A DNA stretch of 64,000 nucleotides from an uncultured Bacilli bacterium (lineage in GTDB: Bacteria > Bacillota_I > Bacilli_A > RF39 > UBA660), in contig CAKOXC010000002.1 of the NCBI GenBank assembly GCA_934129945.1, forward strand, positions 157,664-221,663. Reading direction: 5' to 3'. The stretch's first letter is position 1. Every line of letters starts with the position of its first letter. The position numbers and the translations under genes are program-made. The notes beneath the pieces were generated by a model that was not told the origin of the DNA, ran no database searches, and saw only the letters and a list, made by a program, of their open reading frames with translations. Positions 3,581 through 63,991 of this stretch are shown here, piece by piece.

Positions 3581-4217
3581 ATTTTCTTAATAAGTTAATT
3601 CTTTCATTGTAGTTTTCATGACGGCAAACATAAGATCCACTAACTATTATATTTGCTCCACTATCGCGACACTTTATTGCTGTATATTCATTTAAACCAC
3701 CATCAACACTAATCATAAATTTATAACCTTTATTATATTTTAAATCATTTAAATCTTCTACTTTTTCTAACATATCGAAAATAAATCTTTGACCTCCGGC
3801 ACCAGGTTCAACAGACATTATAAGTATCAAATCTATATCATTATAATATGGTTCTAGATATGATATATCAGTATTAGGTTTAATAGAAATACCAACCTTT
3901 ATACCATAAGATTTAATTAATTTAATTGTTTCTTTTATATCCGTTTTACTTTCTAAATGAAAAGTAATATATTCAGGTTTTAAAGTACTTAAATCTTTAA
4001 TATATTTTTCTGGCTCATAGACCATTAAATGAATATCTAATGGTTTTTTTGTATCTTTTAAATCTTCTAATGTTTCTTCTATATAAAAATTTCTTTTAGG
4101 AACAAACATTCCATCCATTAAATCAACATGAATCATATCAGCATTAGAATTATCAATTAATCTTATTGTACTTTTTTTATCAAAAATACTACTTAAATAT
4201 GACACAGATATTTTCAT
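3579..4217 (-). CDS. rpe: ribulose-phosphate 3-epimerase
   Basis: 212 aa with HVDLMDGMFVP and SVEPGAGGQ motifs typical of Rpe. Position after rsgA matches the conserved Firmicute operon. Confidence 0.9.
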   Translation of the reverse strand: MKISVSYLSSIFDKKSTIRLIDNSNADMIHVDLMDGMFVPKRNFYIEETLEDLKDTKKPLDIHLMVYEPEKYIKDLSTLKPEYITFHLESKTDIKETIKLIKSYGIKVGISIKPNTDISYLEPYYNDIDLILIMSVEPGAGGQRFIFDMLEKVEDLNDLKYNKGYKFMISVDGGLNEYTAIKCRDSGANIIVSGSYVCRHENYNERINLLRK

Positions 4218-5052: not shown

Positions 5053-6798
5053 TTAACATAATCCTGTTTCTTCACAATTATCTGATTCTATTTTTGAAGG
5101 TGTTTTTGCTACTCTAATTTTTAAAGTAACACCTTCAGCTATAGTATAACCTTCAGGTTTATTTTGATAATAGATTGCTCCATCTTGATAATCACTTGTT
5201 TCAACTTCTTCAACTTCTAGTTTAATATTATGTTCATCACAGAATTTTTGAACTTCTGATACAGAGTAACTTCCATCAGTAAAATTAGGGAATTTACTAA
5301 TAATATCAGGAATATAAAGAGTAATTGTTTCACCTACTGAAAGTTTTTCTCCTTCAGCTACAGACTGTTCAATTATTTGACCATCTTTTATATTAGAATT
5401 TTCATCAACTTCTTTTTTCTCAATAACAACTCTAAGTCCTAAAGCTTCTAAAGCACCTTTAATTTCTAAATAATTTTTATCTTTATAGTTTTCTATTGTT
5501 ATTTTAGTATCCCCAACTGAAACATATAATGTTATTAAAGTGCCTTTTGTTCTCTTGCTACCAGCAGCTGGATTAGTTTTTACAATATTTCCTTCATCTA
5601 TATCAGTAGAAGATATTTCTTGCTGTTCATCACTAACTTTAAATCCAGCATTTTGTAATTCATCAATTGCTTTTGTTACAGACATATTAGTTACATCGGG
5701 AACTTTCAATTCTTTTCCCCCAGTTATAAGCGGTATTAATACAACAATTGAAGTAATTACTACTATAAGTCCTGTGAATATTGCCGCGAGTAAAACTACT
5801 AATTTATTTTGTTTTTTCAATTCTTCTGGAGTAATTTGTTTTGCTATAACTTCTTCACTACCTTCTTTTTGTTTTTTTGCTTTTGCATCTGGTTCTTTTA
5901 TTATTTTAACCATTTTAGTATCATCATAATTATTTTCAGAGTACTTAAATTGATATGGTGGTTCATTTTTTCTTGAATCATCTAAACAAGTAAGCAAGTC
6001 TTCATGCATTTCTCTTGCATCAGCATATCTATTTTTAATATTTTTAGCAGTAGCTTTTTTTATAATATTTTCTATACTATTTGGAATATTAGGTATTTCT
6101 TCTCTAATACTCGGAAGTGGTTCTTTTAAATGTTTTAATGCTATTTCTACAGCATTTTCACCACGATATGGCAATTTTCCTGTTAGAAGTTCATACATTA
6201 AAATTCCCATAGAATAAATATCGCTTTGCAATGTTGCACCTTTACCATTAGCTTGTTCTGGCGGAAGATAATGAACACTACCCATTACAGAATTTGTTTG
6301 AGTAAGTTGGGTTGCATTCATGGCCATAGCTATACCAAAATCAGTAATTTTTACAAGACCATTTTCTAAAATCATTATATTTTGTGGTTTTATATCGCGA
6401 TGAATTATATAGGAATCATGAGCAACACTCATACCATCTGTTATTTGTAACATTATATCTACAACTTCAGTAATTGTTAAATGTCCACGTTTTTTTAGTA
6501 ACTCTTTTAAATGTTTACCTTCTATATATTCCATTACTATATAATATTGGCCATTATCCTCTCCTACATCATAAACTTCCACAATATTTGGATGGTTAAG
6601 ACTTGAAGCTGATAAAGCTTCTCTTTGAAAACGTCTTACAAATTTTTCATCAGTCGCAAGGTCACCGCGTAATACTTTTACTGCTACATTTCTATCTAAT
6701 ATAGTATCATATGCAAGGTAAACATTAGCCATTCCACCTTCACCGATTGACTTAATTATTTGATAACGATCACTAATCTTTTGCCCCTTCATAATCAT
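5053..6798 (-). CDS. pknB: Ser/Thr protein kinase with one TM helix and three extracellular PASTA domains
   Basis: Hanks kinase motifs GEGGMANVY, HRDIKPQN and DFGIA; TM segment LVVLLAAIFTGLIVVITSIVVLI; three PASTA-like repeats. The start shows an ATGA overlap with the stp stop. Confidence 0.92.
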   Translation of the reverse strand: MIMKGQKISDRYQIIKSIGEGGMANVYLAYDTILDRNVAVKVLRGDLATDEKFVRRFQREALSASSLNHPNIVEVYDVGEDNGQYYIVMEYIEGKHLKELLKKRGHLTITEVVDIMLQITDGMSVAHDSYIIHRDIKPQNIMILENGLVKITDFGIAMAMNATQLTQTNSVMGSVHYLPPEQANGKGATLQSDIYSMGILMYELLTGKLPYRGENAVEIALKHLKEPLPSIREEIPNIPNSIENIIKKATAKNIKNRYADAREMHEDLLTCLDDSRKNEPPYQFKYSENNYDDTKMVKIIKEPDAKAKKQKEGSEEVIAKQITPEELKKQNKLVVLLAAIFTGLIVVITSIVVLIPLITGGKELKVPDVTNMSVTKAIDELQNAGFKVSDEQQEISSTDIDEGNIVKTNPAAGSKRTKGTLITLYVSVGDTKITIENYKDKNYLEIKGALEALGLRVVIEKKEVDENSNIKDGQIIEQSVAEGEKLSVGETITLYIPDIISKFPNFTDGSYSVSEVQKFCDEHNIKLEVEEVETSDYQDGAIYYQNKPEGYTIAEGVTLKIRVAKTPSKIESDNCEETGLC

Positions 6799-16145: not shown

Positions 16146-16295
16146 AATACTTCTCTCCTTAATCTAATTATACTAAATAGTATTTAAAAAGCAAGGAAAA
16201 AGAACTGAAAGCAACTAATTAAATTTTATCTAAAATAAATACTTTTTTAAACTTAAAATTTGACCTAGATATATTAAGTATGTTATTATTAATTT

Positions 16296-16390
16296 AGTGA
16301 GAAGCAAAAAGTCTTTTAGGGACTTGATGCTTGCCACATTTTGGTTTCAAGCACCTTTATTCAGGTTTTAAGAATAAAGATGCTTTTTTT
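16296..16390 (+). ncRNA. predicted ~95-nt small RNA of module copy 1
   Basis: TTGACC (16260-16265), 18-nt spacer, TGt-TATTAT (16284-16289). The transcript would start near GAGAAGC. It ends at hairpin AAGCAcCTTTATTC-loop-GAATAAAGaTGCTT plus T7 (16349-16390). Confidence 0.45.
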
Positions 16391-16391
16391 A

Positions 16392-16484
16392 TTATATTAA
16401 TATAAATACTAATTTATAAATTATATATAATAGTATGATTATTTAGATGTATAATCCGAAGATTAAAAAATCTTTTTTAGTCAT
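16392..16484 (-). pseudogene. nonsense-disrupted copy of the 30-codon hydrophobic ORF
   Basis: GAGGG SD 8 nt upstream of the ATG at 16484, then MTKKDFLIFGLYI, stop (TAA at 16443-16445), IIILLYIIYKLVFILI, stop. The frame and length are identical to the intact copy at 34910-35002. Confidence 0.4.
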
Positions 16485-16639
16485 ATGTACTACCCTCTTT
16501 CATAGTTTTACCAAAACCCCCTGAATTTTAGTCCCTAATTATGGTAGCAAGCATCTTCTTTTTGCTTCTCGATAGTGTATTATATAGTAATTTTTTTATA
16601 TTTTAAGGCTTTCGACAAATAGTGGCAAATGTTTTATAA

Positions 16640-16672: not shown

Positions 16673-17341
16673 TTAACCAATATTAATATTTCCATCTATA
16701 TCTATAAACATAGCATAACTTCCACCACCACTAGTTCCTTCTAAGATATTAACTATGTTTTTATAACCTTTATAATTATTTTCTATTTCTATTTTTTTAT
16801 CTAATGCTCCTAATTCAACATTTGCCATACCTACTGTGCCATCATTTTTAATAAAATATAAATTTCTAAAGCCACCATTTCCAGTATAAACCATTTCAAA
16901 ATTCCAAACATCTGTAGCTATTAAATATTCTTTACCAAATATGCTTTTCAATTCTTCACCTTTATAATTAACAGTCAATTTTCCATTTAAAAGAACAACG
17001 TCATAATCATTACCAAATTGATTACATGAATCACTAGCTGCATTAAATTCAGTCGCATCATCAGTTCTACATATAAAATATTTTGATATTGTTAAAGAAT
17101 CTGAAGCATTACCTGATCCTTCATTCCATTTGTCAATTTCTGTTTTTTCGTTGTTAATTTCATTTTTATAATTATCTATAAAAGCTTTATATCTCTCATC
17201 AAAAGTATCTTTATCTTTTGCTAAGTTTTTATCACTTTTTTCTACTTCTTTTTCTTCTTTAAAAAACTTATCATATGATAAATATCCACCTAATCCTATA
17301 ACACACAATAATAAAATTACTATACAAATATTTTTCTTCAT
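16673..17341 (-). CDS. signal-anchored secreted/surface protein, tandem paralog A1
   Basis: 222 aa. The N-terminal ~55 residues (MKKNICIVILLLCVIGLGGYLSYDKFFKEEKEVEKSDKNLAKDKDT...) are nearly identical to the next gene. No recognised domain. Confidence 0.8.
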   Translation of the reverse strand: MKKNICIVILLLCVIGLGGYLSYDKFFKEEKEVEKSDKNLAKDKDTFDERYKAFIDNYKNEINNEKTEIDKWNEGSGNASDSLTISKYFICRTDDATEFNAASDSCNQFGNDYDVVLLNGKLTVNYKGEELKSIFGKEYLIATDVWNFEMVYTGNGGFRNLYFIKNDGTVGMANVELGALDKKIEIENNYKGYKNIVNILEGTSGGGSYAMFIDIDGNINIG

Positions 17342-17350
17342 TTTTTCACC

Positions 17351-18082
17351 CTATTCTATTTCGTCATCATTTAATCCATAAACATTTCCATCTATATCAG
17401 TCGCTAACAAATGGCTTTTACCAGCATAACTTGCTTCTTTTATATCAATAATGTTCTTTAGATTATGATAATTATTTACGATTTTAAATTTTTCTGAATT
17501 AAAGCCAACTTCATTTTTTAAAATTACTCCATATTCAATTTCAGCATAGCCAACACTTCCGTCATTTTTAATAAAATATAAAGTTTTAAAACTACCTGCT
17601 TCAAAACCAATTTCAAAATTCCATACATCTTTTGCTATTAAATAATATCTACCATAAATTTTTTGAAGCTCTTCGTTATCATACGAAATTGTTAAATTTC
17701 CATCTTCTAAAATAACGTTGTAAGAAGATCCTATTTCACATACATTATTTGAAAATGTAAATTCATTGGTATCGTCTGATATTTCTTTACTTGAAATGCA
17801 AGAATAGGTTTTCCATATAGAAAGATTATCTACATACCCATCATTTTCATAAGCATCATTTTCATTACTTTTATCAATTTTTACTTTTTTATTATTAATT
17901 GCAGTTTTATAATTATCTATAAAAGCTTTATATCTCTCATCAACAGTATCTTTATCTTTTGCTAAGTTTTTATCACTTTTTTCTACTTCTTTTTCTTCTT
18001 TAAAAAACTTATCATATGATAAATATCCACCAAGTCCTAAAACACACAATAATAAAACTATTATACAAATATTTTTCTTCAT
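17351..18082 (-). CDS. signal-anchored secreted/surface protein, tandem paralog A2
   Basis: 243 aa. About 140 bp at the 5' end is near-identical to 17200-17341, and the C-terminal half is clearly homologous (LYFIKNDGSVGYAEIE versus LYFIKNDGTVGMANVE). Confidence 0.8.
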   Translation of the reverse strand: MKKNICIIVLLLCVLGLGGYLSYDKFFKEEKEVEKSDKNLAKDKDTVDERYKAFIDNYKTAINNKKVKIDKSNENDAYENDGYVDNLSIWKTYSCISSKEISDDTNEFTFSNNVCEIGSSYNVILEDGNLTISYDNEELQKIYGRYYLIAKDVWNFEIGFEAGSFKTLYFIKNDGSVGYAEIEYGVILKNEVGFNSEKFKIVNNYHNLKNIIDIKEASYAGKSHLLATDIDGNVYGLNDDEIE

Positions 18083-18177: not shown

Positions 18178-18209
18178 AAATAAAAAAGTTAAAACATTTA
18201 GTCTTAACT
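18178..18209 (-). terminator. intrinsic terminator of ileS
   Basis: Minus strand has AGTTAAGAC-taaatg-(T)TTTAACT followed by TTTTTT. The hairpin overlaps the ileS stop codon. Confidence 0.6.
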
Positions 18210-21200
18210 TTCAACTTTTTCAATTTTAATTAAAGTTTTATGTCCATTTAAATCTACTGATTCTTCTAGATTTTCATCCTTTATAACTTCTACAGAAAGA
18301 GTTTCCTTTTTAATAAAATCTGCAAAAGTTTCAATTGCTTTATTAACTCTATCATCACCAAAATAATATAATTTTATTCTATTTTCAATTTCAAGTCCAG
18401 AAGTTTTTCTTAAATTTTGAACTTTAGAGACTAATTCTCTTGCAAGTCCTTCTAAAATTAATTCTTCAGTTAATTCAGTATTTAAAATAATAAATTTATT
18501 ATTTTGCATTCCAACATTGAAACCTTCTTTAGATTCGATTCTAACATCTACCATATCTGGAGTAATATCAAGTCTTCCACCATCAAAATCTACAGTAACA
18601 GTTTCATTTTTTAATATTAAATCAATATCTTCATCAGTTAAATCTTTTAATACCTCTTGGTAATCTCTCATTTTAGCCCCAAACATGGCTCCACAAACTT
18701 TGAAATTAGGTTTAATTGTAAAATTCATATATTTAGATAAATCATCAACGAATGTTACTTTCTTAACATTTAACTCTTCAATAATCAAGTTAACTAAGTT
18801 ACCAAGAATACTTTCATATTTACCATCTATTAAACATTCACCAAGTGGTTGTCTAACTTTTACTTTATTTTCTTCACGAACAAAACGACCAGTAGATATT
18901 AAATCTCTTACTAAATCCATTTTTACTTCTATTTCTTCATTTACATGATTTTCATTATAAACTGGGAAATCACATAAATGAACTGATTCTTCTGAAGTTA
19001 AATCCTTGTAGATTTCTTCAGTAGTGTATGGAATAATTGGAGCACATAATTTACATAAACCACATAATACTTCATAAGTAGTAATATAAACTGATTTTTT
19101 AGAATTATCTAACTCGCTGCTCCAGAATCTATTTCTATTACGTCTTATGTACCAATTAGATAAGTCTTCTGAAACAAATGAAGTTATACTTTTTACGGCT
19201 TCATTTAAGTCATATTTATCATAACTTTCTGTAACACTTTTAACTAATTTATTATATTTAGATAATAACCATTTATCTATTTCTTCACGGTTTTCATAAT
19301 CTACAAAACATTTATCAGTATCTATTCCATCAATGTTAGCATACATTTGGAAGAATGAATAAGTATTTCTTAGTGGATTAAAGAATTTTGAATGAACCTC
19401 TTTTAAACCATCTTCATCAAATTTAAGTGGTGTCCAAGTTGGAGATACATATGCTAAATACCATCTAACTGTATCAGCGCCATATTTATGCATGATTGTA
19501 AATGGTTCAACAGCATTTCCTTTACTCTTATGCATTTTTTGACCATTCTTATCAAGTAATAACTCATTAACTAAAACATTTTTATATGGAGATTTTCCTG
19601 TTACGAATGTTCCAATTACTAAAAGTGAATAAAACCATCCACGAGTTTGATCTATACCTTCAGCTATAAAATCTGCTGGATATTGACTTTCCCATAATTC
19701 CTTATTTTCAAATGGATAATGGTATTGACTAAATGGCATAGAACCTGAATCAAACCAACAATCTATTACTTCTTTTGTTCTATTCATTGTTTTACCACAA
19801 CTTGGGCATTTAATATGAATATCATCAACAAATGGGCGATGTAAATCAATAGTTTTTTCATCAACTTCTTCAATAGCTTTTTCTTTTAATTCTTGACGTG
19901 ATCCAATCATTTCCATATGACCACATTCACATCTCCATAAAGGAAGTGGTGTTCCCCAATATCTATTTCTAGAAATAGCCCAATCATTCATATTTGAAAG
20001 CCAGTTTCCAAAACGTTTTTCACCAACAAAAGATGGATACCAATTTACTTTATTATTTTCTTCTATTATTTTATCTTTTAATTTAGTTACTTCAAGATAA
20101 TATGATGGTCTTGAATAGTAAACAAGCGGTGAATCACATCTCCAACAATGAGGATAATCATGTTTGATTTTTTGTTTTTTAAATAATTTGTCATTTTCTT
20201 TTAACCATTTAATTACATCTAAATCAGCATCAAATATATATTGTCCTTTCCATGGGCCTTCAGTATATCTTGCATCTTCACCAACTGGATTAACATATGG
20301 TAATTTATATTTTTTACCAACATTTGCATCATCTTCACCAAATGCTGGTGCAATATGAACTATACCAGTTCCATCAGTCATTGTTACATAAGTATCACAA
20401 GTAACAAAGAAAGCTTTACCATTAATATTAATATCACTTGGAATTAATTGTTCATATTCAACAAATTCTAAATCTTTACCCGTATATTTTTCAATTACTT
20501 TATAATCTTCACCTAATACTTTATCAGCTAGAGCGCTTGCTAAAATAAATTTATAACCTTTAGATTCAACTTTTATATATTCTTCATTTGGATTAACACA
20601 TAGTGCAACATTTGAAACAAGTGTCCATGGAGTTGTAGTCCATACGAGAAAATATTCGTCTTTATCTTTTAACTTAAATGGAACTATTACAGTATTTGCA
20701 TCAACACTTTTATATCCTTGAGCAACTTCATGAGAAGCAAGTCCTGTTCCACATCTTGGACACCAAGGCATAATTTTTACTCCTTCATAAAATAAATTTT
20801 CATCAAAGAATTTTTTTAAAATCCACCATTCTGTTTCAATATAATCATTATCATAAGTAATATATCTATTATCAAGATCTATAAATTGACCCATTTCATC
20901 AGTAAGATTTCTAAAAGCAGTCTCATTATCCCATACTGTTTCTTTACATAATTTATTAAATTCTTTTATACCATATTTTTCAATATCAGCTTTACCAGTA
21001 AATCCTAATTTTTTTTCAACATTAACCTCAACTGGAAGACCATGAGTATCCCAACCTACTTTTCTTAAGACCTTTTTACCTTTCATTGTTTGATATTTAC
21101 AAAAAGAATCTTTTAAAAATTTAGCTACCATGTGATGAAGTCCTGGCATTCCATTAGCTGTTGCTGGTCCATCATAAAATACCCAATTTTCATCATTTTT

Positions 21201-21308
21201 TCTATTATCAATAGTTTTATTTAAAATATCTTGTTTTTTCCACGTAGCTAAAATATCTTTTTCTACTTCATGAACATCTCTTTTGTCTAATTCTTTAAAA
21301 TTTTTCAT
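18204..21308 (-). CDS. ileS: isoleucyl-tRNA synthetase, long (type-2-like) form
   Basis: WDTHGLPVE, KMHKSKGN (KMSKS) and GPATANGMPGLHH (HIGH region). About 1034 aa from the ATG at 21308, which has a GAGGAGG SD. The ORF-track N-terminal extension to 21365 runs into the T-box terminator. Confidence 0.92.
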   Translation of the reverse strand: MKNFKELDKRDVHEVEKDILATWKKQDILNKTIDNRKNDENWVFYDGPATANGMPGLHHMVAKFLKDSFCKYQTMKGKKVLRKVGWDTHGLPVEVNVEKKLGFTGKADIEKYGIKEFNKLCKETVWDNETAFRNLTDEMGQFIDLDNRYITYDNDYIETEWWILKKFFDENLFYEGVKIMPWCPRCGTGLASHEVAQGYKSVDANTVIVPFKLKDKDEYFLVWTTTPWTLVSNVALCVNPNEEYIKVESKGYKFILASALADKVLGEDYKVIEKYTGKDLEFVEYEQLIPSDININGKAFFVTCDTYVTMTDGTGIVHIAPAFGEDDANVGKKYKLPYVNPVGEDARYTEGPWKGQYIFDADLDVIKWLKENDKLFKKQKIKHDYPHCWRCDSPLVYYSRPSYYLEVTKLKDKIIEENNKVNWYPSFVGEKRFGNWLSNMNDWAISRNRYWGTPLPLWRCECGHMEMIGSRQELKEKAIEEVDEKTIDLHRPFVDDIHIKCPSCGKTMNRTKEVIDCWFDSGSMPFSQYHYPFENKELWESQYPADFIAEGIDQTRGWFYSLLVIGTFVTGKSPYKNVLVNELLLDKNGQKMHKSKGNAVEPFTIMHKYGADTVRWYLAYVSPTWTPLKFDEDGLKEVHSKFFNPLRNTYSFFQMYANIDGIDTDKCFVDYENREEIDKWLLSKYNKLVKSVTESYDKYDLNEAVKSITSFVSEDLSNWYIRRNRNRFWSSELDNSKKSVYITTYEVLCGLCKLCAPIIPYTTEEIYKDLTSEESVHLCDFPVYNENHVNEEIEVKMDLVRDLISTGRFVREENKVKVRQPLGECLIDGKYESILGNLVNLIIEELNVKKVTFVDDLSKYMNFTIKPNFKVCGAMFGAKMRDYQEVLKDLTDEDIDLILKNETVTVDFDGGRLDITPDMVDVRIESKEGFNVGMQNNKFIILNTELTEELILEGLARELVSKVQNLRKTSGLEIENRIKLYYFGDDRVNKAIETFADFIKKETLSVEVIKDENLEESVDLNGHKTLIKIEKVES

Positions 21309-21534
21309 ACTTTCCTCCTCAAAATAAAACCACAAAACTGCTAAGGAGCAATTCTGCGGTACCATCCTTTATATTTCTTAATTACTTGTAACGTAAGTTA
21401 ACCGAGATTTTTTACTATTATTTCTAAAATCTAACTCCCAAGTGATTTTCATTAAACTGCATTTGTTAATTTTCACCAACCATTAACTCTCTTTAAAAAT
21501 TCATTTAATTACTCTCTTGTTCAACGTTTTTTCA
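21309..21534 (-). promoter_or_regulatory. T-box riboswitch leader, Ile specifier (AUC)
   Basis: The minus strand shows five expected elements:
- stem I GA motif AGAGAGTA
- AGAGA bulge
- GGTTGGTGAAA distal loop
- specifier GAAA-AUC-A (AUC at 21444-21446)
- T-box GGATGGTACCGCAG (21354-21367)
These are followed by terminator CCGCAGAA-loop-TTTTGTGG plus TTTTATTTT (21321-21359). Confidence 0.88.
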
Positions 21535-33966: not shown

Positions 33967-34686
33967 CTAAATATTATTAAATCCATTCTCTTCGACATAA
34001 TTTGCAAGACTATAATCGCCTGATTTTCTAATTGTTCCATCTTTTAAAATATGAACAAAGTCAGGTTTTATATATTCTAAGATTTTTTTATGATGAGTAA
34101 TAATTAAAATACTTGGTTTAAATTTTTTATAATATTTCATAATTGATTCAGACACTACTTTAAGAGCATCAACATCTAATCCAGAGTCAATTTCATCAAG
34201 TATTATAAAACTTGGTTCTAACATCCATAAGTGAATTAATTCGTTTTTCTTTTTTTCGCCACCAGACATTCCTAAGTTTATTTCTCGATGTAAAAAATTT
34301 TCTGGAATATTTAATTCATTACATATTTCTTTAGCTTTTTTACTAAATTCAAATATATTTAATTTTTTTCCTTGAGCATTAAGAGTTGTTCTTAGCATTT
34401 CTGCGTTGGTAATTCCTTCAAGTTCAATTGGATTTTGATTAAGTAAAAATACACCATCTTTTGCTATTTGATATGTTTCTTCATTAGTTATATCTTTATC
34501 ATTCAAAATAATAGTACCACTTTTTTTATAATTTTTATCATTAAGAATTACCTTACATAATGTTGATTTACCTACTCCGTTTGGCCCCATGATTGCATGG
34601 ATTTCACCATCATTTATATTTAAATTTAAATTATTTAATATTTTTTTATCTTCTGCATCTACAGATAAATTTTTAATATTTAACAT
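33967..34686 (-). CDS. sufC: Fe-S assembly ATPase SufC
   Basis: GPNGVGKST Walker A, MSGGEKKK signature and ILDEIDSGLD Walker B. I prefer the ATG at 34686 (MLNIKNLSV). Its own promoter ATGACA-17-TAAAAT lies upstream. Confidence 0.92.
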   Translation of the reverse strand: MLNIKNLSVDAEDKKILNNLNLNINDGEIHAIMGPNGVGKSTLCKVILNDKNYKKSGTIILNDKDITNEETYQIAKDGVFLLNQNPIELEGITNAEMLRTTLNAQGKKLNIFEFSKKAKEICNELNIPENFLHREINLGMSGGEKKKNELIHLWMLEPSFIILDEIDSGLDVDALKVVSESIMKYYKKFKPSILIITHHKKILEYIKPDFVHILKDGTIRKSGDYSLANYVEENGFNNI

Positions 34687-34816
34687 AAAAATCACCCAAG
34701 TGTATTTTATCAAATTTCTATTAAATTGTCATCTTTTCTTATAAAAAATGTATTTATGAAAAATATCTTTAATAAAAAAATTGTATCTATATAAAATCTA
34801 TGATATTATTAATTTA

Positions 34817-34908
34817 GGTGAGAAGCAAAAAGTCTTTTAGGGACTTGATGCTTGCCACGTATGTGTTAAGCACCTTTATTCAGGTTTTAAGAATAAAGAT
34901 GCTTTTTT
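34817..34908 (+). ncRNA. predicted ~90-nt small RNA of module copy 2 (candidate antitoxin or regulatory RNA)
   Basis: TTGTAT (34781-34786), 17-nt spacer, TGa-TATTAT (34804-34809), with a terminator hairpin plus T6 at 34868-34908. The internal hairpin GCTT..AAGC keeps its stem while the apical sequence differs from copy 1. Confidence 0.5.
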
Positions 34909-34909
34909 A

Positions 34910-35002
34910 TTATATTAATATAATTATCAATTTATATATTATATATAATAGTATGATTATTAAGATGTATAATCCGAAGATTAAAAAATCCTTTTTAGTC
35001 AT
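34910..35002 (-). CDS. 30-aa hydrophobic peptide MTKKDFLIFGLYILIIILLYIIYKLIIILI (candidate type I toxin or small membrane protein)
   Basis: Promoter TTGAAA (35120-35125), 16-nt spacer, TATAAT (35098-35103); GAAGG SD 8 nt before the ATG at 35002. Against copy 1 the ORF shows 6 substitutions (3 synonymous, 2 conservative, 1 nonsense in copy 1) and no indels, whereas nearby non-ORF segments do carry indels. Confidence 0.45.
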   Translation of the reverse strand: MTKKDFLIFGLYILIIILLYIIYKLIIILI

Positions 35003-35173
35003 ATGTACTACCTTCTTTCACAGTTTTGCCAAAACCCCCTGAATTTTAGTCCCTAAAGTAAGGTAGCAAGCATCTTCTTTTTGCTTCTCGAGACTGTATT
35101 ATATAGTAATTTTTTTATATTTCAAGACTTTCGACAAAACTAGAAAAAACTTCTTATTTTTTGACATTTTTTG

Positions 35174-35205
35174 CATAAAAAACATCTTATTTTCCATAAG
35201 ATGTT
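35174..35205 (-). terminator. intrinsic terminator of the 181-aa secreted-protein gene
   Basis: Minus strand has AACATCTTAT-ggaaa-ATAAGATGTT followed by TTTTTT. The hairpin includes the last codons of the gene. Confidence 0.7.
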
Positions 35206-35732
35206 ATTACTGTAATCTTTGTTTCTAAATTTTTATTAGAAGCACTTTCTACTGTTTCATTTTCATCTACCCACATTTTCAAATTATAAGTATGAGTTGT
35301 ATCTTTTTGAATTACGTCATTATGTAAATTAAAACTTATACTTGCATTATCAAGTGTCTTTGTAGTTTCTGTTAAAGTATTTAAAAATTGTGGTGGAAGA
35401 TCATTCAAACTATACTTTATTTGAGATGGATCAAAATTATTTGCACCATTAAGTATTTCTAAATTAATTTGAATATTTTGATCTAACTTACAATTGTTAG
35501 TTAGTGTAAAACTTAAAGGTGTTGTATTTAAGCCATCACTATCTTTCATAGGGTACGTATTTTCTAAATTAATATAACTATTTTCAGTCAATGTAGTCTC
35601 AAAACAAGAAACATTCAAAACATTAACTTCATTTTGTGCAAAACCTACTGACCACTTAGAATAAGTATACCCTATTACTCCAATTAAAGAAGTCAAAACG
35701 CAAACAAATATAAATAAATTTCTTTTTTTCAT
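35187..35732 (-). CDS. small secreted/anchored protein with a TasA/camelysin-like N-terminal module (family also at 51293-51922 and the N-terminus of the giant protein)
   Basis: GAGGTGA SD and signal-anchor LFIFVCVLTSLIGVIGYTYSKWS. Shared blocks with the 209-aa protein are PM..S.GL....SF.L.N and H...LK.W.DE. Confidence 0.75.
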   Translation of the reverse strand: MKKRNLFIFVCVLTSLIGVIGYTYSKWSVGFAQNEVNVLNVSCFETTLTENSYINLENTYPMKDSDGLNTTPLSFTLTNNCKLDQNIQINLEILNGANNFDPSQIKYSLNDLPPQFLNTLTETTKTLDNASISFNLHNDVIQKDTTHTYNLKMWVDENETVESASNKNLETKITVITSYGK

Positions 35733-37310: not shown

Positions 37311-40300
37311 TTAATTTGTAGCTTTAATAGCTGTCGTAACTTTAATTGACCCTCTACAACCATTTCTAGTATGTTGACAAATCAGATTTAATTTAGTTTG
37401 TTTTTTTGCTGTTGCTGTAAGAGTATAAGAAATCGAATATGCCCCAGATTTCCATGTTCCCCATGCTGGTACTGTATAAGAATTTCCAGAAATTTTTACA
37501 TTACAGTTATTACTGCTAGCTGTTCCTGTTCCTAGACAAACTGAACAACTTACTCCATTTTCATATTGGCATCCTTTACTATCTCCAATTGTATATTTTC
37601 CAGTTATCTTTGTATATCCTGATAATGAAATACTTGCAGTTTTTACTATGTATGGAGTATTTACATTTGTATTTTCAGTCCAATTTCCAGTCGATAAAAG
37701 GTTTTTAGCACACGCTGCTGTTGCTGAACAACTTTTACTACATGAAACTGAAGAACTACCACAACTAGAGCCGTCTACAGTACTTTTATAATATACGGTT
37801 TGCGTTCCAGTTTTAGTTGATGCCGCATTACCGCAGGCAGTTGGGCAAGTAGCACTACACGAACTTCTTGAAGACTCAGTTTTTCCTCCACAACCTTGAC
37901 TGTAATGATTATTAACTGTTGCTGTTGCACTACCGCAATCTAAATTATTATATTTTGACGTATATTTATCAGTTCTAATAGCATTTTTATACTGTGTTCC
38001 ACCGCCACAAACATTATTACATGCTGTCCAATTTCCTGTTTGAGCATAGGTTGATGTTGTATTATAATTTCCAGCTGAACAATATCCTACATTATTAATA
38101 GAACTAACTGATGAACACGACGTATTTCCCGCATTACTAGTTATACATTTTTTCATATAATAAGTTGTTGCTGTTTTTGTTGCTGTTACTGTTGCTACAC
38201 AATTATTGCTAGATAATGTAGCGGCAGTTGATGGTGCATTTGTAGTTCCAAAATAACAATTTGTTGACTTAATACCACTTATAGCTGCTCCAGATGAATA
38301 TGCTCCTGTTATGGTAGCATATGAGCTAGATGATGATGATAAAGATGGTATTGTTAATGTTTTTTCTACATATACATTTGCCGTCCTTGCAGAACAACCT
38401 GTTGTATTTCCAGCATTATCTTTTATTGTGTATGCCGCTATTGATGCAGTTGATGTATTTGCATTAAAAGTTTTTGATGCCCCTGTATAACCACTCATAC
38501 ATCCTGATAATGCATCATTACATCCCCATGTTATCGTTCTATCAGCTTTTGTCCACGTTGTTGAATCTCCACTATTTGTACATGTTGGTGCCGTTTTATC
38601 TATTTTCAAATGAATAGTATTTGAAGCACTACTTGTAAGACCTGAATTACTTATTGCTTTGAAGAATACATAAGTTTCTCCTTCTTTTGATATATTTTGG
38701 GCATTTCTTAACCATGAAGAACTACTTATGGTTCTTCCTTCATTTTTACCACTGTTATTATAATGTGAAACTAGCTTTGTCACATTTCCATTAAATGCAT
38801 TTATTAAATCACTATAAGTTTGATGATAATATGCAACATCCATTCCACTTACTGAAACTCCGTCGGTATTATTATCTAAATCATTCCATGTACATCCAGA
38901 AGTTGTATTACTTGTATTTGTACAATATTGATATTTCTTTATTCCACTTGTCGCTGTACTATTTGTTGTATTCCATACAATCTGATTGTAATTTTGCCAT
39001 TCTCCTGATCCACCAGCTATAACAGGTGCTGTCGGAGCCACTGAATCGACTTTAGATACTGTTGCACTACAATTTTTAATTCTTCCAACTTTATCTTTTA
39101 CATAAGCTGTATATGTTCCATTTGCTGTTATTGTTTTGGTTTGCGTACTTCCATATGTTGTTCCATCCCACGAATAACTTGCTACTCCTGACTGACTATC
39201 TGTTCCACTTACTGTTAATATTGCACTTGTTGTCCAAGATGTTGGTAATCCTGTTATTGTACATGTTGGTTTTTCCGTATCTATTTTTGTTACATTTGCA
39301 CTACATGTATTTGTATTTCCAGCTTTATCCGTCACTGTTGCACTTACACTTCCATTTGATGTTACTGTTTTACTTGCTGATGTTGTTCCTGTAAATACTA
39401 CTGATGATACCCCACTATGACTATCTGATCCAGTTGCTTTTAATGTTGCACTTGTTGTCCAACTTGTTGGATTACCACTTATACTACATGTTGGGGCTAT
39501 ATTATCTAAATTAAATACATTACTTCTTGTTATTGTTTGATTTCCAGCATTATCTGTTGCTAGTATCCATAAATAATATGACCCTGTCCCATCAGATTTT
39601 GTTATTGTACTTCCGTTTGTAAATGAAGTTGTAAAAGTACTTGCAGTTGGAGCGGTTGTACTTGTTGTCCATTGATATTTTAAAATAGAAATACCAGATA
39701 GATTATCTGTTACTGTTACTTTTGTACTTTGACTCTTTGCATATGTACTATTTCCATTTGTTCCAAATGCCACTGTAGGTTTTGTTGTATCTATCTTATT
39801 TACATTTATTGTTGCAACCTTTTTATTTCCTACTGTATCTTCAGCATAAACTGTATATGTATTATTCTCTGTCACTTTTAATGTATCTGATGTTAATGTT
39901 ATTCCTCCTGTTGTAAAATAACTTTCTGTTTGATTTCCTGTTGCATATTTTACAGTCTTTATTTCCACATTATCTGATTTTGAAATATTTATATTATAGA
40001 AACTATTATTATATAATTGTCCCCATACTTTAAAGTTCCTTATCTTTACTGGCGGTTGTGAATAAGTATTACCAGTTGAAAAAGAAAATTTTAAATATTT
40101 AACATCACTTCCATATCCACTCCAACCGTCCCATGAAAGATTATTTTTCCATTCATTAAGTGTAAAGGAAGGTGCATTACCATTTGCACTATAACCATTT
40201 TGACTTTTTATACCATTTTTATTTACATCAAAATATGATGAATTTGACAAAATTCCGCCAGTTCCATCATCATTAGCTTTTGTTGTTGTATAAGCATCGT

Positions 40301-43300
40301 ATAAAACATGCCAGTACTCTCCATTTACCGCATAATAATTTGAAGTAGCTGATCCAGATTGACTTAATGTTAAAATACCATTGCCAACACTTCCTCCTGT
40401 TGGTAGACTCCAATTATCAAATCCTTCTTGATATGTTTCTTTTGTTAATGAAAGAGTTGGTGCTGTCTTATCAACATATACATTTGCTGTTCTTTGTTGG
40501 CATGTTGTTTCATTACCAGCATTATCTTTTATTGTATATGATGCTATTGTTACTGTTTTTGTACTTGTTGTATATGTTTGTGATCCTCCTGTGTATCCTG
40601 TTTTACATCCTGATAATGTATCACTACATCCCCATGTTATTGTTCTATTTCCACTTGTCCATGTTGTTGAGTCTCCACTATTTGTACATGTTGGTTTTGT
40701 CTTATCTATCTTTATAACTGCACTTGTTTCTTCTGATATATTTCCTGCTTTATCTATTGCTCTAAATCTTACTGTTTCATTTCTCTCTGCAGTATATGTT
40801 ATTGATGTTACACCACCAGTCGTTGTCATCGCTCTTGTTGTCCAACCACTTTCGTACCATTCATAGTGATCTATTCCACTTCCTGTATCTGTTGATGATA
40901 ACTCTACATATACACTATTATTCGTCCATGTTCCACTTGTATATGCACTTCCTGATGCATTATTTAATTTGAGTGTTATATTTGGTTTTGTTGGAGATGT
41001 ATTATCTACTCCACTTATTGTTAAGGAACTTCCTTGTTTATAGTTTATTCCATCTGCTGTTTTTGCTATTAATGTTCCATTACTTGTATATGTTAATGTC
41101 GGATTGTTTGCTGCTTTATACCATGTATTCTCTTTTAAGGTACTTCCTACTGGTAGTATTGTTGTACTACATGTATATTCTCCATTATTACTTACTGTTC
41201 CACAATCTATTAATTCTATATTGCTTGTTGCACTACCAGTTGTTTTTAATAAGTATGCTCCCTCTCCTTTATATGTTATTGTTGTTGTTTTACTCTTTGC
41301 ATATCCACTTGCTACTGTATATGTTGGTATTTCTAGTTCATTTGGTGTCTCTGTTCCACTTATCTCTTTTGTTAATGATGCATTATTTGTACACACTAGT
41401 TTATATGTATGATTTTTTGATTCTACATTTTCATATGTATAATCTTTTGTATTGTCTTTTATTTCATATGTTGCTTTTTTTGTTCCATCTAAATAGAATT
41501 CATATCTTTTTATTCCGGATTCATTATCTGTACATGTTCCAGTTACTGTTATACTTTTTGATGTTTTTGCTTTTGTTTTTATTGTTGCTATTGGTTCTGT
41601 TGTATCTATATTTGTTACTTCTTTACTACATTTTCCAATATTTCCTGCTTTATCTTTTATGTATGCTATATATGTATCATTATTATTTATTGTTTTAGTA
41701 TTTGTTGTAGTATAGTTTTCTCCATCAAAAGAATATGTACTTATTCCACTATGACCATCTGTTGCTGTTATTTTTAGTGTTGCACTTGATGTCCAACTTG
41801 TTGGTGTTACATCCATTATACATGTTGGATTTGTATTATCTAATTTGAATGCATTACTTTTTGTTATTATTTGGTTTCCAGCATTATCTATTGCTAGTAT
41901 CCATAAGTAATAATCCCCTGTTCCATCAGATTTTGTTAATGTATCACCACTTGCAAAAGTATTTGTAAAAGTACTTACAGCTGGTTGGTTTGTTGAGTTT
42001 GTCCATTGATATTTTAGTGTTGATATTCCTGATTGAGTATCTGTTACTGTTACTTTTGTGCTTTGACTCTTTGCATATGTGTTATTTCCATTTGTTTCAA
42101 ATGTAACAGTTGGTTTTGTTTTATCTATTTTATCAATATCTAGACTACAATTTGCAGTATTACCCAATTTATCTTTTGTATATGCTGTATATTTACCATT
42201 TGCAGTTATTTCTTTTGTTTGGTTACTTCCATATGTTGTTCCATCCCATGAATATGTTACTCCACCACTATGTTCATCTGTTCCCACTACTTTTAGTGTA
42301 ACATTACCATTTGTATAATTTGTTATATTCCCTTCTATATTACATGTTGGTGGAGTTGTATCTACATATACATTAATTGTTTTTGAACATGTTGTTGTAT
42401 TTCCTGCATTATCACTTATTGTATATGATACTTCATCCGTTACTTTTGTTTCTTTATAATTCCATGTTTTAGAGTTTGTTGTATTTAAACATCCACTTTC
42501 TTGATCTTTACATGTTACTGTTATATCGGCACTTGTTCTATATGTTGTTGACTCACCACTCCAGTTACAACTTGGAGCATTATTATCTAATTTAAATGTA
42601 TTACTTTTGATTATTATTTGGTTTCCTGCATTATCTATTGCTAGTATCCATAAGTAATAATCCCCTGTTCCATCAGATTTTGTTAATGTATCACCACTTG
42701 CAAAAGTATTTGTAAAAGTACTTACAGCTGGTTGGTTTGTTGAGTTTGTCCATTGATATTTTAAAGTAGAAACTCCTGATAAATTATCTGTTACTGTTAC
42801 TTTTGTACCTTGACTTTTTGCATATGTGTTATTTCCATTTGTTTCAAATGTTACAGTTGGTTTTTCATTATCAACATTTATTATTTCTATTTCTTCTGTT
42901 TCTTTTTCATTTATTGTATCATTTACTTTTGCTTTTATTGTTCCATTTGTTTTATATGTTAATTCTAGATCTTCTTCTGTTTTATGCCATGATGTTGTAT
43001 CTAATTTTGTTCCAGCTTTAATTAATTCTGTACATTTCATTTCTTCTGTACATTTATACAAATCTTTATTTGCTGTTACAGTTCCTGTTAATAATAAATA
43101 TTTATTTCCTTCACCAGGATATTTTACTATTACTTTCTTTTCTTGTTCATAGTTATCATTTTTCTCTATTGTTGGTATTACTAATACATTTGGTGTTTCT
43201 TTTATTTCACTATTGCTTATTACATCAAAGTTATTTGTACATACTAATTTTAATTCATATTCTTTTTCATTTAAGTTATCATATGTATATTTATAACTTT

Positions 43301-44354
43301 TTTCTTTTGTTTCTATTTCTTTTACTAATTCATTATTTTTATAGAAACTGTATTTCTTTATTCCAGATTCTTCGTCTATACAGCTTGCATTTACTGTTAT
43401 ACTCTTTGATGTCTTACTATCTACTGCTATTATTGCTTCTGGTTTTGTATCTTTTACCTCTTTTGTATTTATTTCTATTTTTGTTTTAAATTCTTTTTCA
43501 TTTTCACTTTCTTTATTTACTATTAATTTATAATTATCTGTTTCTCCACTTTTTAGACTTTGGTTATAGTATATATATGTTAATTCTCCAGTTTTTGGCA
43601 CTTCAGCTTCTTTTACTTTTTCACCATTTTTTTCTAATGTATAATTCAATTCATTTGCTTCATACGTATTAGTTAAATTACTTAAATTTATACTATAATT
43701 TATTGTTTTTTTTACATCAGCATTTCTTACTCTAAATTCTTTTATTACTTCATTATTTTTTATTTCTTCGTTTGTTATTTCTTCACTATCTTCATATGTT
43801 TTTATTAATGGTTCTTTTTCTTTTTCTAAATCTATTTCTACTGTTCCACTAAATGTATCATTTTTATCTACTATTTGTAATTCATTTTCTAAATTCTTAT
43901 ATGTTATTGTTAATATATATTCCCTTTTTTCTCCAGGGTTTATTTTTATATTTTCTAATATGTATTCTTCAATACTTGTTTTTGGTAATGGTGTTTCTTT
44001 TACTATTTCTTCTCCATTACATTTTAATGTATATACCATATCTTTTTTATATGTTTTTACTATATCTTTAAATTTTATATTATATGTTAATGTTTCATCG
44101 GCATCACTTGTTACTGTAAATGTTTTTTCTAAACTCTTTCCTGGTAACATATCTAATACATTTACTTCTTTTGTATCATCAAATACTAATGCTATTTTTT
44201 TTGACTTTAATATTGTTTCGGTTTCATTATTTTCTTTTGTTTTTCCACGGTAAAAAGAATGAGCATAATTTATACTTATTACTGATACTAAAATAAGTAA
44301 ACTAATAGCAATTATTATCTTAATTTTATTTAGTTTTGCTTTCATGCTCATCAT
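37311..44354 (-). CDS. 2347-aa N-terminally anchored surface protein: 2 TasA-like modules, many Ig-like repeats, a lectin/CBM-like insert and a Cys-rich C-terminal region
   Basis: Single uninterrupted ORF with signal-anchor IIIAISLLILVSVISINYAHSFY. Recurrent D-x-x-SG[IV]...Y and D-[NK]-AGN motifs are typical of bacterial Ig-like adhesin domains. No LPXTG or choline-binding tail. The C-terminal ~230 aa is rich in Cys. Confidence 0.9.
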   Translation of the reverse strand: MMSMKAKLNKIKIIIAISLLILVSVISINYAHSFYRGKTKENNETETILKSKKIALVFDDTKEVNVLDMLPGKSLEKTFTVTSDADETLTYNIKFKDIVKTYKKDMVYTLKCNGEEIVKETPLPKTSIEEYILENIKINPGEKREYILTITYKNLENELQIVDKNDTFSGTVEIDLEKEKEPLIKTYEDSEEITNEEIKNNEVIKEFRVRNADVKKTINYSINLSNLTNTYEANELNYTLEKNGEKVKEAEVPKTGELTYIYYNQSLKSGETDNYKLIVNKESENEKEFKTKIEINTKEVKDTKPEAIIAVDSKTSKSITVNASCIDEESGIKKYSFYKNNELVKEIETKEKSYKYTYDNLNEKEYELKLVCTNNFDVISNSEIKETPNVLVIPTIEKNDNYEQEKKVIVKYPGEGNKYLLLTGTVTANKDLYKCTEEMKCTELIKAGTKLDTTSWHKTEEDLELTYKTNGTIKAKVNDTINEKETEEIEIINVDNEKPTVTFETNGNNTYAKSQGTKVTVTDNLSGVSTLKYQWTNSTNQPAVSTFTNTFASGDTLTKSDGTGDYYLWILAIDNAGNQIIIKSNTFKLDNNAPSCNWSGESTTYRTSADITVTCKDQESGCLNTTNSKTWNYKETKVTDEVSYTISDNAGNTTTCSKTINVYVDTTPPTCNIEGNITNYTNGNVTLKVVGTDEHSGGVTYSWDGTTYGSNQTKEITANGKYTAYTKDKLGNTANCSLDIDKIDKTKPTVTFETNGNNTYAKSQSTKVTVTDTQSGISTLKYQWTNSTNQPAVSTFTNTFASGDTLTKSDGTGDYYLWILAIDNAGNQIITKSNAFKLDNTNPTCIMDVTPTSWTSSATLKITATDGHSGISTYSFDGENYTTTNTKTINNNDTYIAYIKDKAGNIGKCSKEVTNIDTTEPIATIKTKAKTSKSITVTGTCTDNESGIKRYEFYLDGTKKATYEIKDNTKDYTYENVESKNHTYKLVCTNNASLTKEISGTETPNELEIPTYTVASGYAKSKTTTITYKGEGAYLLKTTGSATSNIELIDCGTVSNNGEYTCSTTILPVGSTLKENTWYKAANNPTLTYTSNGTLIAKTADGINYKQGSSLTISGVDNTSPTKPNITLKLNNASGSAYTSGTWTNNSVYVELSSTDTGSGIDHYEWYESGWTTRAMTTTGGVTSITYTAERNETVRFRAIDKAGNISEETSAVIKIDKTKPTCTNSGDSTTWTSGNRTITWGCSDTLSGCKTGYTGGSQTYTTSTKTVTIASYTIKDNAGNETTCQQRTANVYVDKTAPTLSLTKETYQEGFDNWSLPTGGSVGNGILTLSQSGSATSNYYAVNGEYWHVLYDAYTTTKANDDGTGGILSNSSYFDVNKNGIKSQNGYSANGNAPSFTLNEWKNNLSWDGWSGYGSDVKYLKFSFSTGNTYSQPPVKIRNFKVWGQLYNNSFYNINISKSDNVEIKTVKYATGNQTESYFTTGGITLTSDTLKVTENNTYTVYAEDTVGNKKVATINVNKIDTTKPTVAFGTNGNSTYAKSQSTKVTVTDNLSGISILKYQWTTSTTAPTASTFTTSFTNGSTITKSDGTGSYYLWILATDNAGNQTITRSNVFNLDNIAPTCSISGNPTSWTTSATLKATGSDSHSGVSSVVFTGTTSASKTVTSNGSVSATVTDKAGNTNTCSANVTKIDTEKPTCTITGLPTSWTTSAILTVSGTDSQSGVASYSWDGTTYGSTQTKTITANGTYTAYVKDKVGRIKNCSATVSKVDSVAPTAPVIAGGSGEWQNYNQIVWNTTNSTATSGIKKYQYCTNTSNTTSGCTWNDLDNNTDGVSVSGMDVAYYHQTYSDLINAFNGNVTKLVSHYNNSGKNEGRTISSSSWLRNAQNISKEGETYVFFKAISNSGLTSSASNTIHLKIDKTAPTCTNSGDSTTWTKADRTITWGCNDALSGCMSGYTGASKTFNANTSTASIAAYTIKDNAGNTTGCSARTANVYVEKTLTIPSLSSSSSSYATITGAYSSGAAISGIKSTNCYFGTTNAPSTAATLSSNNCVATVTATKTATTYYMKKCITSNAGNTSCSSVSSINNVGYCSAGNYNTTSTYAQTGNWTACNNVCGGGTQYKNAIRTDKYTSKYNNLDCGSATATVNNHYSQGCGGKTESSRSSCSATCPTACGNAASTKTGTQTVYYKSTVDGSSCGSSSVSCSKSCSATAACAKNLLSTGNWTENTNVNTPYIVKTASISLSGYTKITGKYTIGDSKGCQYENGVSCSVCLGTGTASSNNCNVKISGNSYTVPAWGTWKSGAYSISYTLTATAKKQTKLNLICQHTRNGCRGSIKVTTAIKATN
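41820..42866 (-). repeat. two near-identical ~300-bp intragenic direct repeats, 747 bp apart (third diverged copy at about 39480-39785)
   Basis: Segment 41820-42119 versus 42567-42866 has long runs of perfect identity. They encode KPTVTFETNGNNTYAKSQ.TKVTVTD..SG[VI]STLKYQWTNSTNQPAVSTFTNTFASGDTLTKSDGTGDYYLWILAIDNAGNQII. Confidence 0.85.
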
Positions 44355-63856: not shown

Positions 63857-63991
63857 TTCTTTACCTCCTTTAAAATTTTAAGACTCGCCTATAAAGGTAC
63901 TAATAAATAGATTTTTAACCTGTTAAGTGCGGTTTGAAAAGAAAGCCCTTTCAAACGTTAAAATCATATCAAAAATATGTACTTTTGTCAA
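63857..63991 (-). promoter_or_regulatory. rplU promoter plus ~100-nt structured leader (position of the Firmicute L21 leader)
   Basis: TTGACA (63986-63991), 17-nt spacer, TATGAT (63963-63968). The leader contains hairpin GTTTGAAA-loop-TTTCAAAC (63932-63956) and ends at an AAAGGAGG SD. Confidence 0.5.

Follow-up and report, generated by a model that had tools for sequence, protein, structure and literature searches.

The window analyzed here, a 64,000-nt stretch of contig CAKOXC010000002.1 from an uncultured Bacilli bacterium, carries an intergenic module between sufC (33967-34686, minus strand) and the gene for a 181-aa exported-looking protein (35187-35732, minus strand). In this module, a predicted gene for a small hydrophobic peptide on the minus strand converges with a predicted gene for a terminated small RNA on the plus strand, and it is probable, though by no means certain, that the two form a chromosomal type I toxin-antitoxin (TA)-like cassette of a previously undescribed family. 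On this reading, both strands would be transcribed, the candidate peptide would be toxic, and its mRNA would decay in a duplex-dependent manner. The family appears to be confined to a narrow gut and rumen lineage of Erysipelotrichaceae, with at least 10-13 copies per genome. A type I TA candidate had been proposed at this intergenic position in the original prediction, and the comparative data support that proposal at the level of sequence. They also add to it: the window holds a second copy, the module is multi-copy, two of its stretches form an inverted repeat (34820-34858 versus 35048-35089), and the inserted unit is larger than first marked.

Gene callers miss the peptides of type I TA systems because these are so short, and no sequence is shared from one family to another. 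To our knowledge, no type I TA family has been reported from Erysipelotrichia, and a full-text literature search for type I TA systems in Erysipelotrichaceae found no paper. The family had been described as unrecognized, and this agrees with the lack of any known toxin or antitoxin match in Rfam, Pfam, NCBIfam, PHROGs, PADLOC, and protein collections. Rfam 15, which includes the antitoxin RNAs of 13 type I families (PMC8594479), was searched over the whole window at the gathering threshold and over 34600-35300 at E ≤ 10, and gave chance matches only in the module region. The peptides had no match in Pfam or NCBIfam (E ≤ 10), PHROGs, or PADLOC; none of six peptide variants was found by exact look-up among 15 billion proteins; and phmmer with the 30-aa peptide returned 0 matches from 1.84 billion protein representatives. 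The comparisons below draw on 38 copies or fragments of the module, 2 in the window and 36 elsewhere, the latter gathered by exact-pattern scans of one genome per species and of metagenomes; segment identities are fractions across 16 full copies.

The peptide gene and its convergent RNA

The 30-codon open reading frame (ORF) lies at 34910-35002 on the minus strand (ATG, 35002-35000; stop codon, 34910-34912) in a region of 14% G+C, compared with 25% for the window, and encodes the candidate membrane toxin MTKKDFLIFGLYILIIILLYIIYKLIIILI. The frame itself, its GAAGG Shine-Dalgarno (SD) sequence 8 nt before the ATG, and a stop codon abutting the plus-strand terminator are all present as originally described, and in all peptide types the stop codon is 1 nt outside the T-run of that terminator. 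Homologous ORFs have 26-35 codons, with a grand average of hydropathy of 1.5-2.2, and encode three types of peptide: T1 (MTKKDFLIFGLYILIIILLYIIYKLIIILI, plus a 26-residue variant), T2 (MNKREYLVSRLFNLIIIQLFIIIALFIVIILIICK), and T3 (MNKNDYIISRLFIIIFIQLFIIIALFVKILVITYK), the latter two with just 40-47% amino acid identity to T1. Common to all three is an N-terminal pattern, M-x-K-x-D/E-Y/F-L/I-I/V-x-R/G-L-F/Y, followed by ~20 hydrophobic residues, that is, a short charged N terminus and then a single predicted transmembrane helix. The frame is open in 16 of the 20 copies with a fully sequenced ORF region, and the coding frame contains 0.11 stops per copy, compared with 1.2-8.1 in the other five frames. 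Nucleotide identity of the ORF is 0.70, below that of the promoter, hairpins, and leader. Copies winA and L063 differ in this region by 4 synonymous and 0 nonsynonymous changes, copies L131 and L078 by 2 and 0, and the ratio of nonsynonymous to synonymous differences (pN/pS) between T2 and T3 is 0.44. Among 44 substitution events, 16.5 were synonymous against 20% expected (p = 0.009), a conservative count in that a misaligned tail inflates the nonsynonymous side. The replacements are themselves conservative (T/S, L/I, F/L, Y/F, I/V, K/R, Q/E), and ORF lengths differ by multiples of 3, with T1 differing from T2 and T3 by 15 nt. On these comparisons, the ORF is a real, selectively maintained gene for a membrane peptide of 26-35 residues and not a chance product. 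The earlier caveat that such a frame can arise by chance in AT-rich DNA thus loses its force: the frame is open in three diverged types with an excess of synonymous and conservative changes, the SD is kept, and the sequence that pairs with it covaries.

The ORF mRNA would be read from a promoter at 35098-35125 on the minus strand (TTGAAA, 35125-35120; 16-nt spacer; TATAAT, 35103-35098). With 11 of 12 consensus positions matched, it is the top-scoring promoter of the region, and no other segment of the module is as well conserved (identity, 0.97). It is followed by a leader of ~90 nt, whose 5' part has an identity of 0.92. The original prediction held that CUACCUU in the leader could pair with the SD region, and the centroid fold contains this helix: GCUACCUU at 35067-35060, the 5' arm or anti-SD (35060-35067, minus strand), pairs with AAGGUAGU at 35014-35007, giving CUACCUU/AAGGUAG. 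The 3' arm and the SD region occupy 35007-35015 on the minus strand, with GAAGG at 35015-35011. The AAGG of the SD is predicted to be >97% paired at every transcript length tested, and an SD stands at the correct spacing in all peptide types, in a region with an identity of 0.64. RNAalifold recovered the anti-SD/SD helix independently from 15 distinct leaders, with one pair being U-A in 7, C-G in 8, and broken in 0. Where both arms are readable, CUACC always occurs with GGUAG and CCAC (CCACC) always with GGUGG, with no mixing and with a point change in the copy L079 (SD, GGCAG) as the sole departure. T3 ORFs are found with both leader types, as are both variants of the right end of the module. 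The covariation represents a single compensatory event, not many, but one that survived the re-assortment of both flanks. An upstream ORF of eight codons (AUG AAA GAA GGU AGU ACA UAU GAC UAA, MKEGSTYD) at 35003-35029 on the minus strand spans the SD and runs into the main AUG in a different frame; it has a GUG start in the flagged copy and is clearer at 16485-16511 (minus strand) and in most type-1 leaders. It is probably inessential, because type-2 leaders lack it.

The plus-strand promoter is at 34781-34809, as originally placed (TTGTAT, 34781-34786; 17-nt spacer; TG, 34801-34802; TATTAT, 34804-34809), and has an extended −10 with a TRTG motif. Its −35 agrees with the consensus at 3 of 6 positions, hence its absence from the promoter scan. 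TRTG-n-TATTAT is kept in every copy, and TTGnnn stands 17 nt upstream in nearly all, while the −35 itself varies (TTGTAT, TTGACC, TTGTCA, TTGAAA, TTGTTT) and is non-homologous between subfamilies; identity of the promoter segment is 0.66. The candidate antitoxin read from it would be an RNA of ~93 nt (34816-34908), composed of a 5' hairpin (34818-34858), a linker (34859-34867), and the terminator (34868-34908), a hairpin with 14-nt arms (inverted repeat I12) followed by T6. The predicted fold is stable (−28.7 kcal/mol, z = −3.7), with 0 of 200 shuffles reaching the same stability, and the 5' hairpin and terminator are conserved at 0.91 and 0.94, respectively. The linker is hypervariable (0.44) and shifts in length by non-multiples of 3, and therefore no reading frame crosses it. 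A plus-strand ORF of 74 aa (34818-35042) that spans this length-variable linker was rejected as unconserved, the second window copy having only 25 aa. The motif AAGCA...UGCUU occurs twice in the plus RNA, in the arms of the 5' hairpin (34824-34828/34850-34854) and of the terminator (34868-34872/34900-34904), and an alternative attenuator-like 2:3 pairing can be drawn from these; the minimum free energy fold prefers 1:2 plus 3:4.

The two predicted RNAs also resemble each other at their 5' ends. The 5' part of the minus leader (35048-35089, minus strand) comprises block A (GAGAAGCAAAAAG, 35089-35077), block C (GAUGCUUGC, 35074-35066), and block B (UUUAGGGACU, 35057-35048), all of which are found again in the 5' hairpin of the plus RNA (34820-34858), inverted in the DNA (repeats I11, I20, and I25) and in a different order. 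The two 5' ends are alike, not complementary. Because the blocks are inverted in the DNA, a minus RNA that crossed the plus-RNA gene would pair its own 5' and 3' ends, and a minus RNA reaching 34820 is predicted to fold with A and C paired to its own 3' end (−78.8 kcal/mol, z = −7.2). Variants inside the paired blocks retain a G·U pair in 3 cases and break the pairing in 1.

Copies of the module and their insertion sites

The 36 copies or fragments outside the window come from the rumen Erysipelotrichaceae metagenome-assembled genome RUG14121 and the metagenome assemblies ERZ857922 and OJMO01. At least 13 separate minus arms were counted in RUG14121 and 10 loci in each of the two metagenome assemblies; matches in RUG14121 are often at contig ends, as for an assembly-breaking repeat. 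Exact-pattern matches in other taxa do not fit the module and are due to chance, the scan of viral contigs gave chance matches only, and plasmid and phage sequences contained nothing that blastn matched to the module.

A profile of the module run over the window found two copies only. The second, winB, occupies 16205-16639 and is 93% identical to the first over ~340 nt (16279-16619), with the three most distinctive strings of the module recurring at 16299-16570. Its plus-RNA gene is intact (~16295-16390), its ORF is a remnant (16392-16484, minus strand) with codon 14 changed from TTA to TAA, and the −35 of its ORF promoter is weakened to TTAAAA (16601-16606). The other broken ORFs have a nonsense codon at position 7 (L001), an internal deletion (L026), and a truncation (L114), and all four copies retain the plus-RNA gene. 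Broken frames beside conserved helices had been named in the original prediction as the pattern of a purely structural RNA. They do occur, in 4 of 20 copies (two nonsense mutations, one deletion, and one truncation), and these are in keeping with toxin genes in decay, not with an RNA whose role is structural alone. The truncated copy (L114, 10815-10993), at the sufC locus of another strain, has the plus-RNA gene and the last T3-like codons followed by unrelated sequence, and it is effectively an orphan antitoxin gene.

The unit that is repeated and inserted exceeds the flagged ~350 bp. Homology common to all copies extends over ~34799-35140, to which subfamily-specific ends are added, and the whole inserted unit spans ~34734-35176 (~443 nt, no strand assigned), with the same site being empty in close relatives. 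In relatives whose SufC is 95%, 88%, and 78% identical, the sufC promoter comes immediately after the terminator T-run of the 181-aa gene (gap, 48-57 nt), and therefore the flagged copy is a 443-nt insertion from 35176 to 34734. The own promoter of sufC is present (ATGACA-17-TAAAAT). On the right flank, the unit starts straight after the U-run of the intrinsic terminator of a different gene in 28 of 29 readable copies. The gene donating this terminator is on the ORF strand, and the distance to its U-run is fixed within each of the two right-end variants, R1 and R2. The right-end segment, from the U-run of the upstream gene to the −35 of the ORF promoter (35126-35176, minus strand), holds a conserved TTTGTCGAAAG immediately 5' of that −35 (35126-35140, minus strand), which could be an operator or an UP-like element. 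In right-end variant 2 (L027, L031, and others), TTTGTCGAAAG becomes a 10-nt direct repeat, TTTGTCACTA / TTTGTCGAAA.

Downstream, copies stand before unrelated genes (nfeD and many others), and some face a convergent gene. The relative L156, with a 97% identical NfeD, lacks the second window copy at that position, and a module profile run with nhmmer over 120 kb of sequence (12 contigs) from relatives whose SufC is at most 95% identical found no copy. The family therefore looks lineage-restricted or else diverged beyond recognition. At two pairs of filled and empty sites, no clean target-site duplication was found, the result being ambiguous, and no transposase was seen. Identity in the flanks is 0.30. 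The copies winB and L109 share a left flank and have different right flanks, and leaders, ORFs, and ends occur in mosaic combinations, from which it follows that module copies recombine with each other.

Proposed mechanism, rival explanations, and known families

If the module is a type I TA cassette, its operation might be pictured as follows. The near-consensus sigma-70 promoter on the minus strand would produce an mRNA with a ~90-nt leader in which the anti-SD CUACCUU covers the ribosome binding site, and the peptide would therefore go untranslated from the mRNA as transcribed. The convergent promoter would yield the ~93-nt terminated RNA, whose gene is 1 nt past the stop codon of the ORF. 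A minus transcript continuing past the stop codon would be perfectly complementary to this RNA over ~90 nt, such that the plus RNA could act as the antitoxin through a long duplex, which would be an RNase III substrate by analogy to RatA and SR4. The mRNA begins with a repeat of the first 40 nt of the plus RNA and could therefore pair with the same 3' region in a 5'-3' clamp, in which case this region would be contested between the plus RNA and the 5' end of the mRNA. With 91-94% identity among copies, the plus RNAs could also act on the mRNAs of other copies, which would explain the copies with a dead ORF and an intact plus-RNA gene.

Several features sit uneasily with this scheme. Of the two predicted promoters, that of the toxin looks the stronger, whereas in the usual layout it is that of the antitoxin, and the predicted occlusion of the SD is constitutive, independent of the clamp and of plus-RNA binding. 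Complementarity of the plus RNA to the leader and SD, of the kind seen in Fst and SprA1, was no better than in shuffles; moreover, the plus RNA does not overlap the ORF and could pair with its mRNA only 3' of the stop codon, so control would rest on the 3' untranslated region alone. In most copies, the stretch from the stop codon to the plus promoter shows no intrinsic terminator for the minus RNA, and on its minus side the plus terminator lacks a U-run. The helices of the plus RNA are invariant, which makes them uninformative as to covariation, and only the SD helix covaries. The conservation of blocks A and C, finally, is partly built in, as copies were gathered by exact patterns from the module. 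Plus RNA and mRNA would be complementary only if the mRNA runs past the stop codon. One copy alone, L037, has a terminator-like element for the minus RNA, an AU hairpin (AUAGAUUUUACAUAAAAUCUAU) with U8 lying over the plus promoter (~3995-4030, minus strand), ~50 nt beyond the start of the plus RNA.

The main alternative is that the module is a small membrane-protein gene with a cis-antisense RNA whose peptide is no toxin, for instance a small membrane regulator, and that it became multi-copy through a repeated or mobile segment. This is possible though unlikely. The evidence for coding and for regulation fits it equally well, and the peptide has no homology to any known toxin. However, a small genome with at least 10 copies, all of them paired with an antisense RNA of their own and with an SD that stays occluded, bears the signature of type I systems, as does the recurrent inactivation of the ORF with retention of the antisense gene, and the module is dispensable, being absent in relatives whose neighboring proteins are 95-97% identical. 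More doubtful again is a fuller reading in which the module would be a selfish, recently expanded element: a cassette delivered to, or tolerated only at, positions after terminators, with a clamp/duplex switch, a shared antitoxin pool, and copies that drive rearrangement. Were this so, the position after a terminator would insulate the toxin promoter, and the antitoxin pool would let copies lose the toxin.

It is quite improbable that the module is a non-coding dispersed repeat, whether a structural RNA or akin to a miniature inverted-repeat transposable element (MITE), with the ORF a by-product of AT-rich sequence. The module does occur in many copies that break contigs, has internal inverted repeats, is polymorphic for insertion, follows terminators with striking regularity, and has an ORF region of low G+C that is broken in a fifth of the copies. 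Yet three types with differences at 30-60% of residues all have an open frame, with synonymous excess, conservative replacements, in-frame indels, and SD/anti-SD covariation, and there is no clean target-site duplication at the paired sites. The inverted blocks, unlike those of a MITE or other non-autonomous transposon, are 40-90 nt inside the unit and not terminal, and the ends come in two or more variants. Mobility and coding are, in any case, compatible with each other. Hardly credible is a leader or regulatory region of the suf operon, with the small ORF as a leader peptide or the promoter feeding sufC, an idea that draws on the co-direction of the flagged minus RNA with sufC and the absence of a visible terminator before sufC but is effectively refuted by the distribution of copies, since others stand upstream of unrelated genes or face a convergent one, sufC has its own promoter, and close relatives with the same operon layout lack the module.

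As a type I TA candidate, the module is nearest in layout to txpA/RatA and bsrG/SR4 of Bacillus subtilis, with which it shares convergent genes and an antisense RNA 3' of a small hydrophobic-peptide mRNA (PMC3834814, PMC8594479, PMC8309996), an SD in a double-stranded region of the mRNA, and a duplex expected to be cleaved by RNase III. The likeness to these pairs that had been proposed therefore stands for geometry; it fails for sequence, ORF overlap, and genomic setting. In bsrG/SR4, the first contact is made via the terminator loop of the antitoxin (PMC3834814, PMC8594479, PMC8309996), and antisense RNAs of the TxpA/RatA type cover the mRNA 3' end and some of the ORF as well (PMC8594479). 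In contrast to TxpA/RatA, BsrG/SR4, BsrE/SR5, and YonT/SR6, the plus RNA of the module ends 1 nt short of the ORF without overlap, and the module has no sequence, Rfam, Pfam, or NCBIfam match to them. It further differs from txpA/RatA and bsrG/SR4 in that its peptide has fewer residues and no charged tail at the C terminus, its 10 or more copies are in core intergenic regions rather than prophages, and the 5' end of its mRNA repeats the 5' end of the antitoxin.

Other likenesses are partial. With Fst/RNAII (par, pAD1) and SprA1/SprA1as, also Firmicute systems of convergent RNAs, the module has in common an SD sequestered by an intramolecular leader helix, a single-helix peptide of ~30 residues with charged residues at positions 2-5, and repeats common to the 5' ends of both RNAs (PMC8309996). 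The DRa and DRb repeats of par are direct in the DNA, and thus its two 5' ends are complementary (PMC8309996), whereas the repeats of the module are inverted, giving identical 5' ends without 5'-5' complementarity. Nor is the module terminator bidirectional as in par, given the missing U-run on the minus side, and the peptides lack the APxxxG/PxxxGC motif of Fst/Ldr (PMC8309996), have no proline in any type, and have no Pfam Fst match. A 5'-3' long-distance helix, if the minus RNA spans the plus-RNA gene, would recall hok/Sok and aapA1/IsoA1, in which full-length mRNAs are kept inert by fold-back (PMC6733600, PMC8594479). Those systems are Gram-negative, with an antisense RNA that the mRNA overlaps in full and that targets the 5' region, where translation starts, and with 3' trimming that exposes the SD, whereas in the module the antisense RNA would target the 3' region, the SD is predicted to be occluded locally with or without the clamp, and there is no Pfam HOK_GEF match. 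The Clostridioides difficile CD2517.1/RCd8 type likewise has convergent overlapping genes, multiple paralogues, and unannotated toxins without outside homology (PMC6563280). Its toxins have a hydrophobic N terminus and a lysine-rich C terminus and are found in prophages or beside CRISPR arrays (PMC6563280). In the module, by contrast, the charge is N-terminal (MxKxD/E), the C terminus has 0-2 lysines, and there is no phage or plasmid match.

The type I systems Ibs/Sib and Ldr/Rdl of Escherichia coli were first seen as repeated intergenic sequences (SIB/QUAD and LDR), several per chromosome. They are listed among the type I families (PMC8594479) and resemble the module as multi-copy intergenic repeats, but they are proteobacterial, have 4-5 copies that are often in tandem, and lack the dispersal next to terminators. 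Two features of the module are undescribed in known families from Gram-positive bacteria: the 5' end of the antitoxin recurs at the 5' end of the toxin mRNA, and copies stand almost invariably right after the terminators of other genes. Identical 5' ends and terminator-adjacent dispersal make the family more than a routine addition, and the TA reading, if true, would add a family and a layout of regulation that are both new. It would further account for assembly breaks at module sites in gut and rumen genomes and differences in gene order there between strains. Dozens of copies, intact, decaying, or toxin-less, with matched empty sites in close relatives, offer an unusually rich natural data set.

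Neighboring features and other observations

The window also encodes a repeat-rich protein of 2347 aa whose N terminus has a hydrophobic segment (37311-44354, minus strand), and in relatives the large genes adjoining sufC have a prepilin-type N_methyl domain (PF07963). In one relative with an 84% identical SufC (L144), the gap upstream of sufC is 667 nt long and contains a 27-nt direct repeat, AAAAGTAGTTGTTGTAAAAAATTGATT, at 6466-6492 and 6724-6750, enclosing ~230 nt that are richer in G+C, a separate insertion at a site of this kind. Directly upstream of the second window copy are tandem paralogous lipoprotein-like genes (16673-17341 and 17351-18082, minus strand), both of whose products start MKKNICI..LLLCV.GLGGYLSYDKFFKEEKEVEKSDKNLAKDKD. 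In the 97% relatives, the C terminus of an IS3-like transposase (..YYNYDRIKVKLKGLSPVKYRLQSSN) lies directly upstream of nfeD (L156, 3-638; L157, 1-95), and this IS3-like end cuts into the terminator bordering the second window copy. The only Rfam matches above the gathering score in the window are a T-box leader (21341-21533, minus strand; 103.7 bits) upstream of the isoleucyl-tRNA synthetase gene (18204-21365) and a ribosomal protein L21 leader (63871-63945, minus strand; 47.9 bits).

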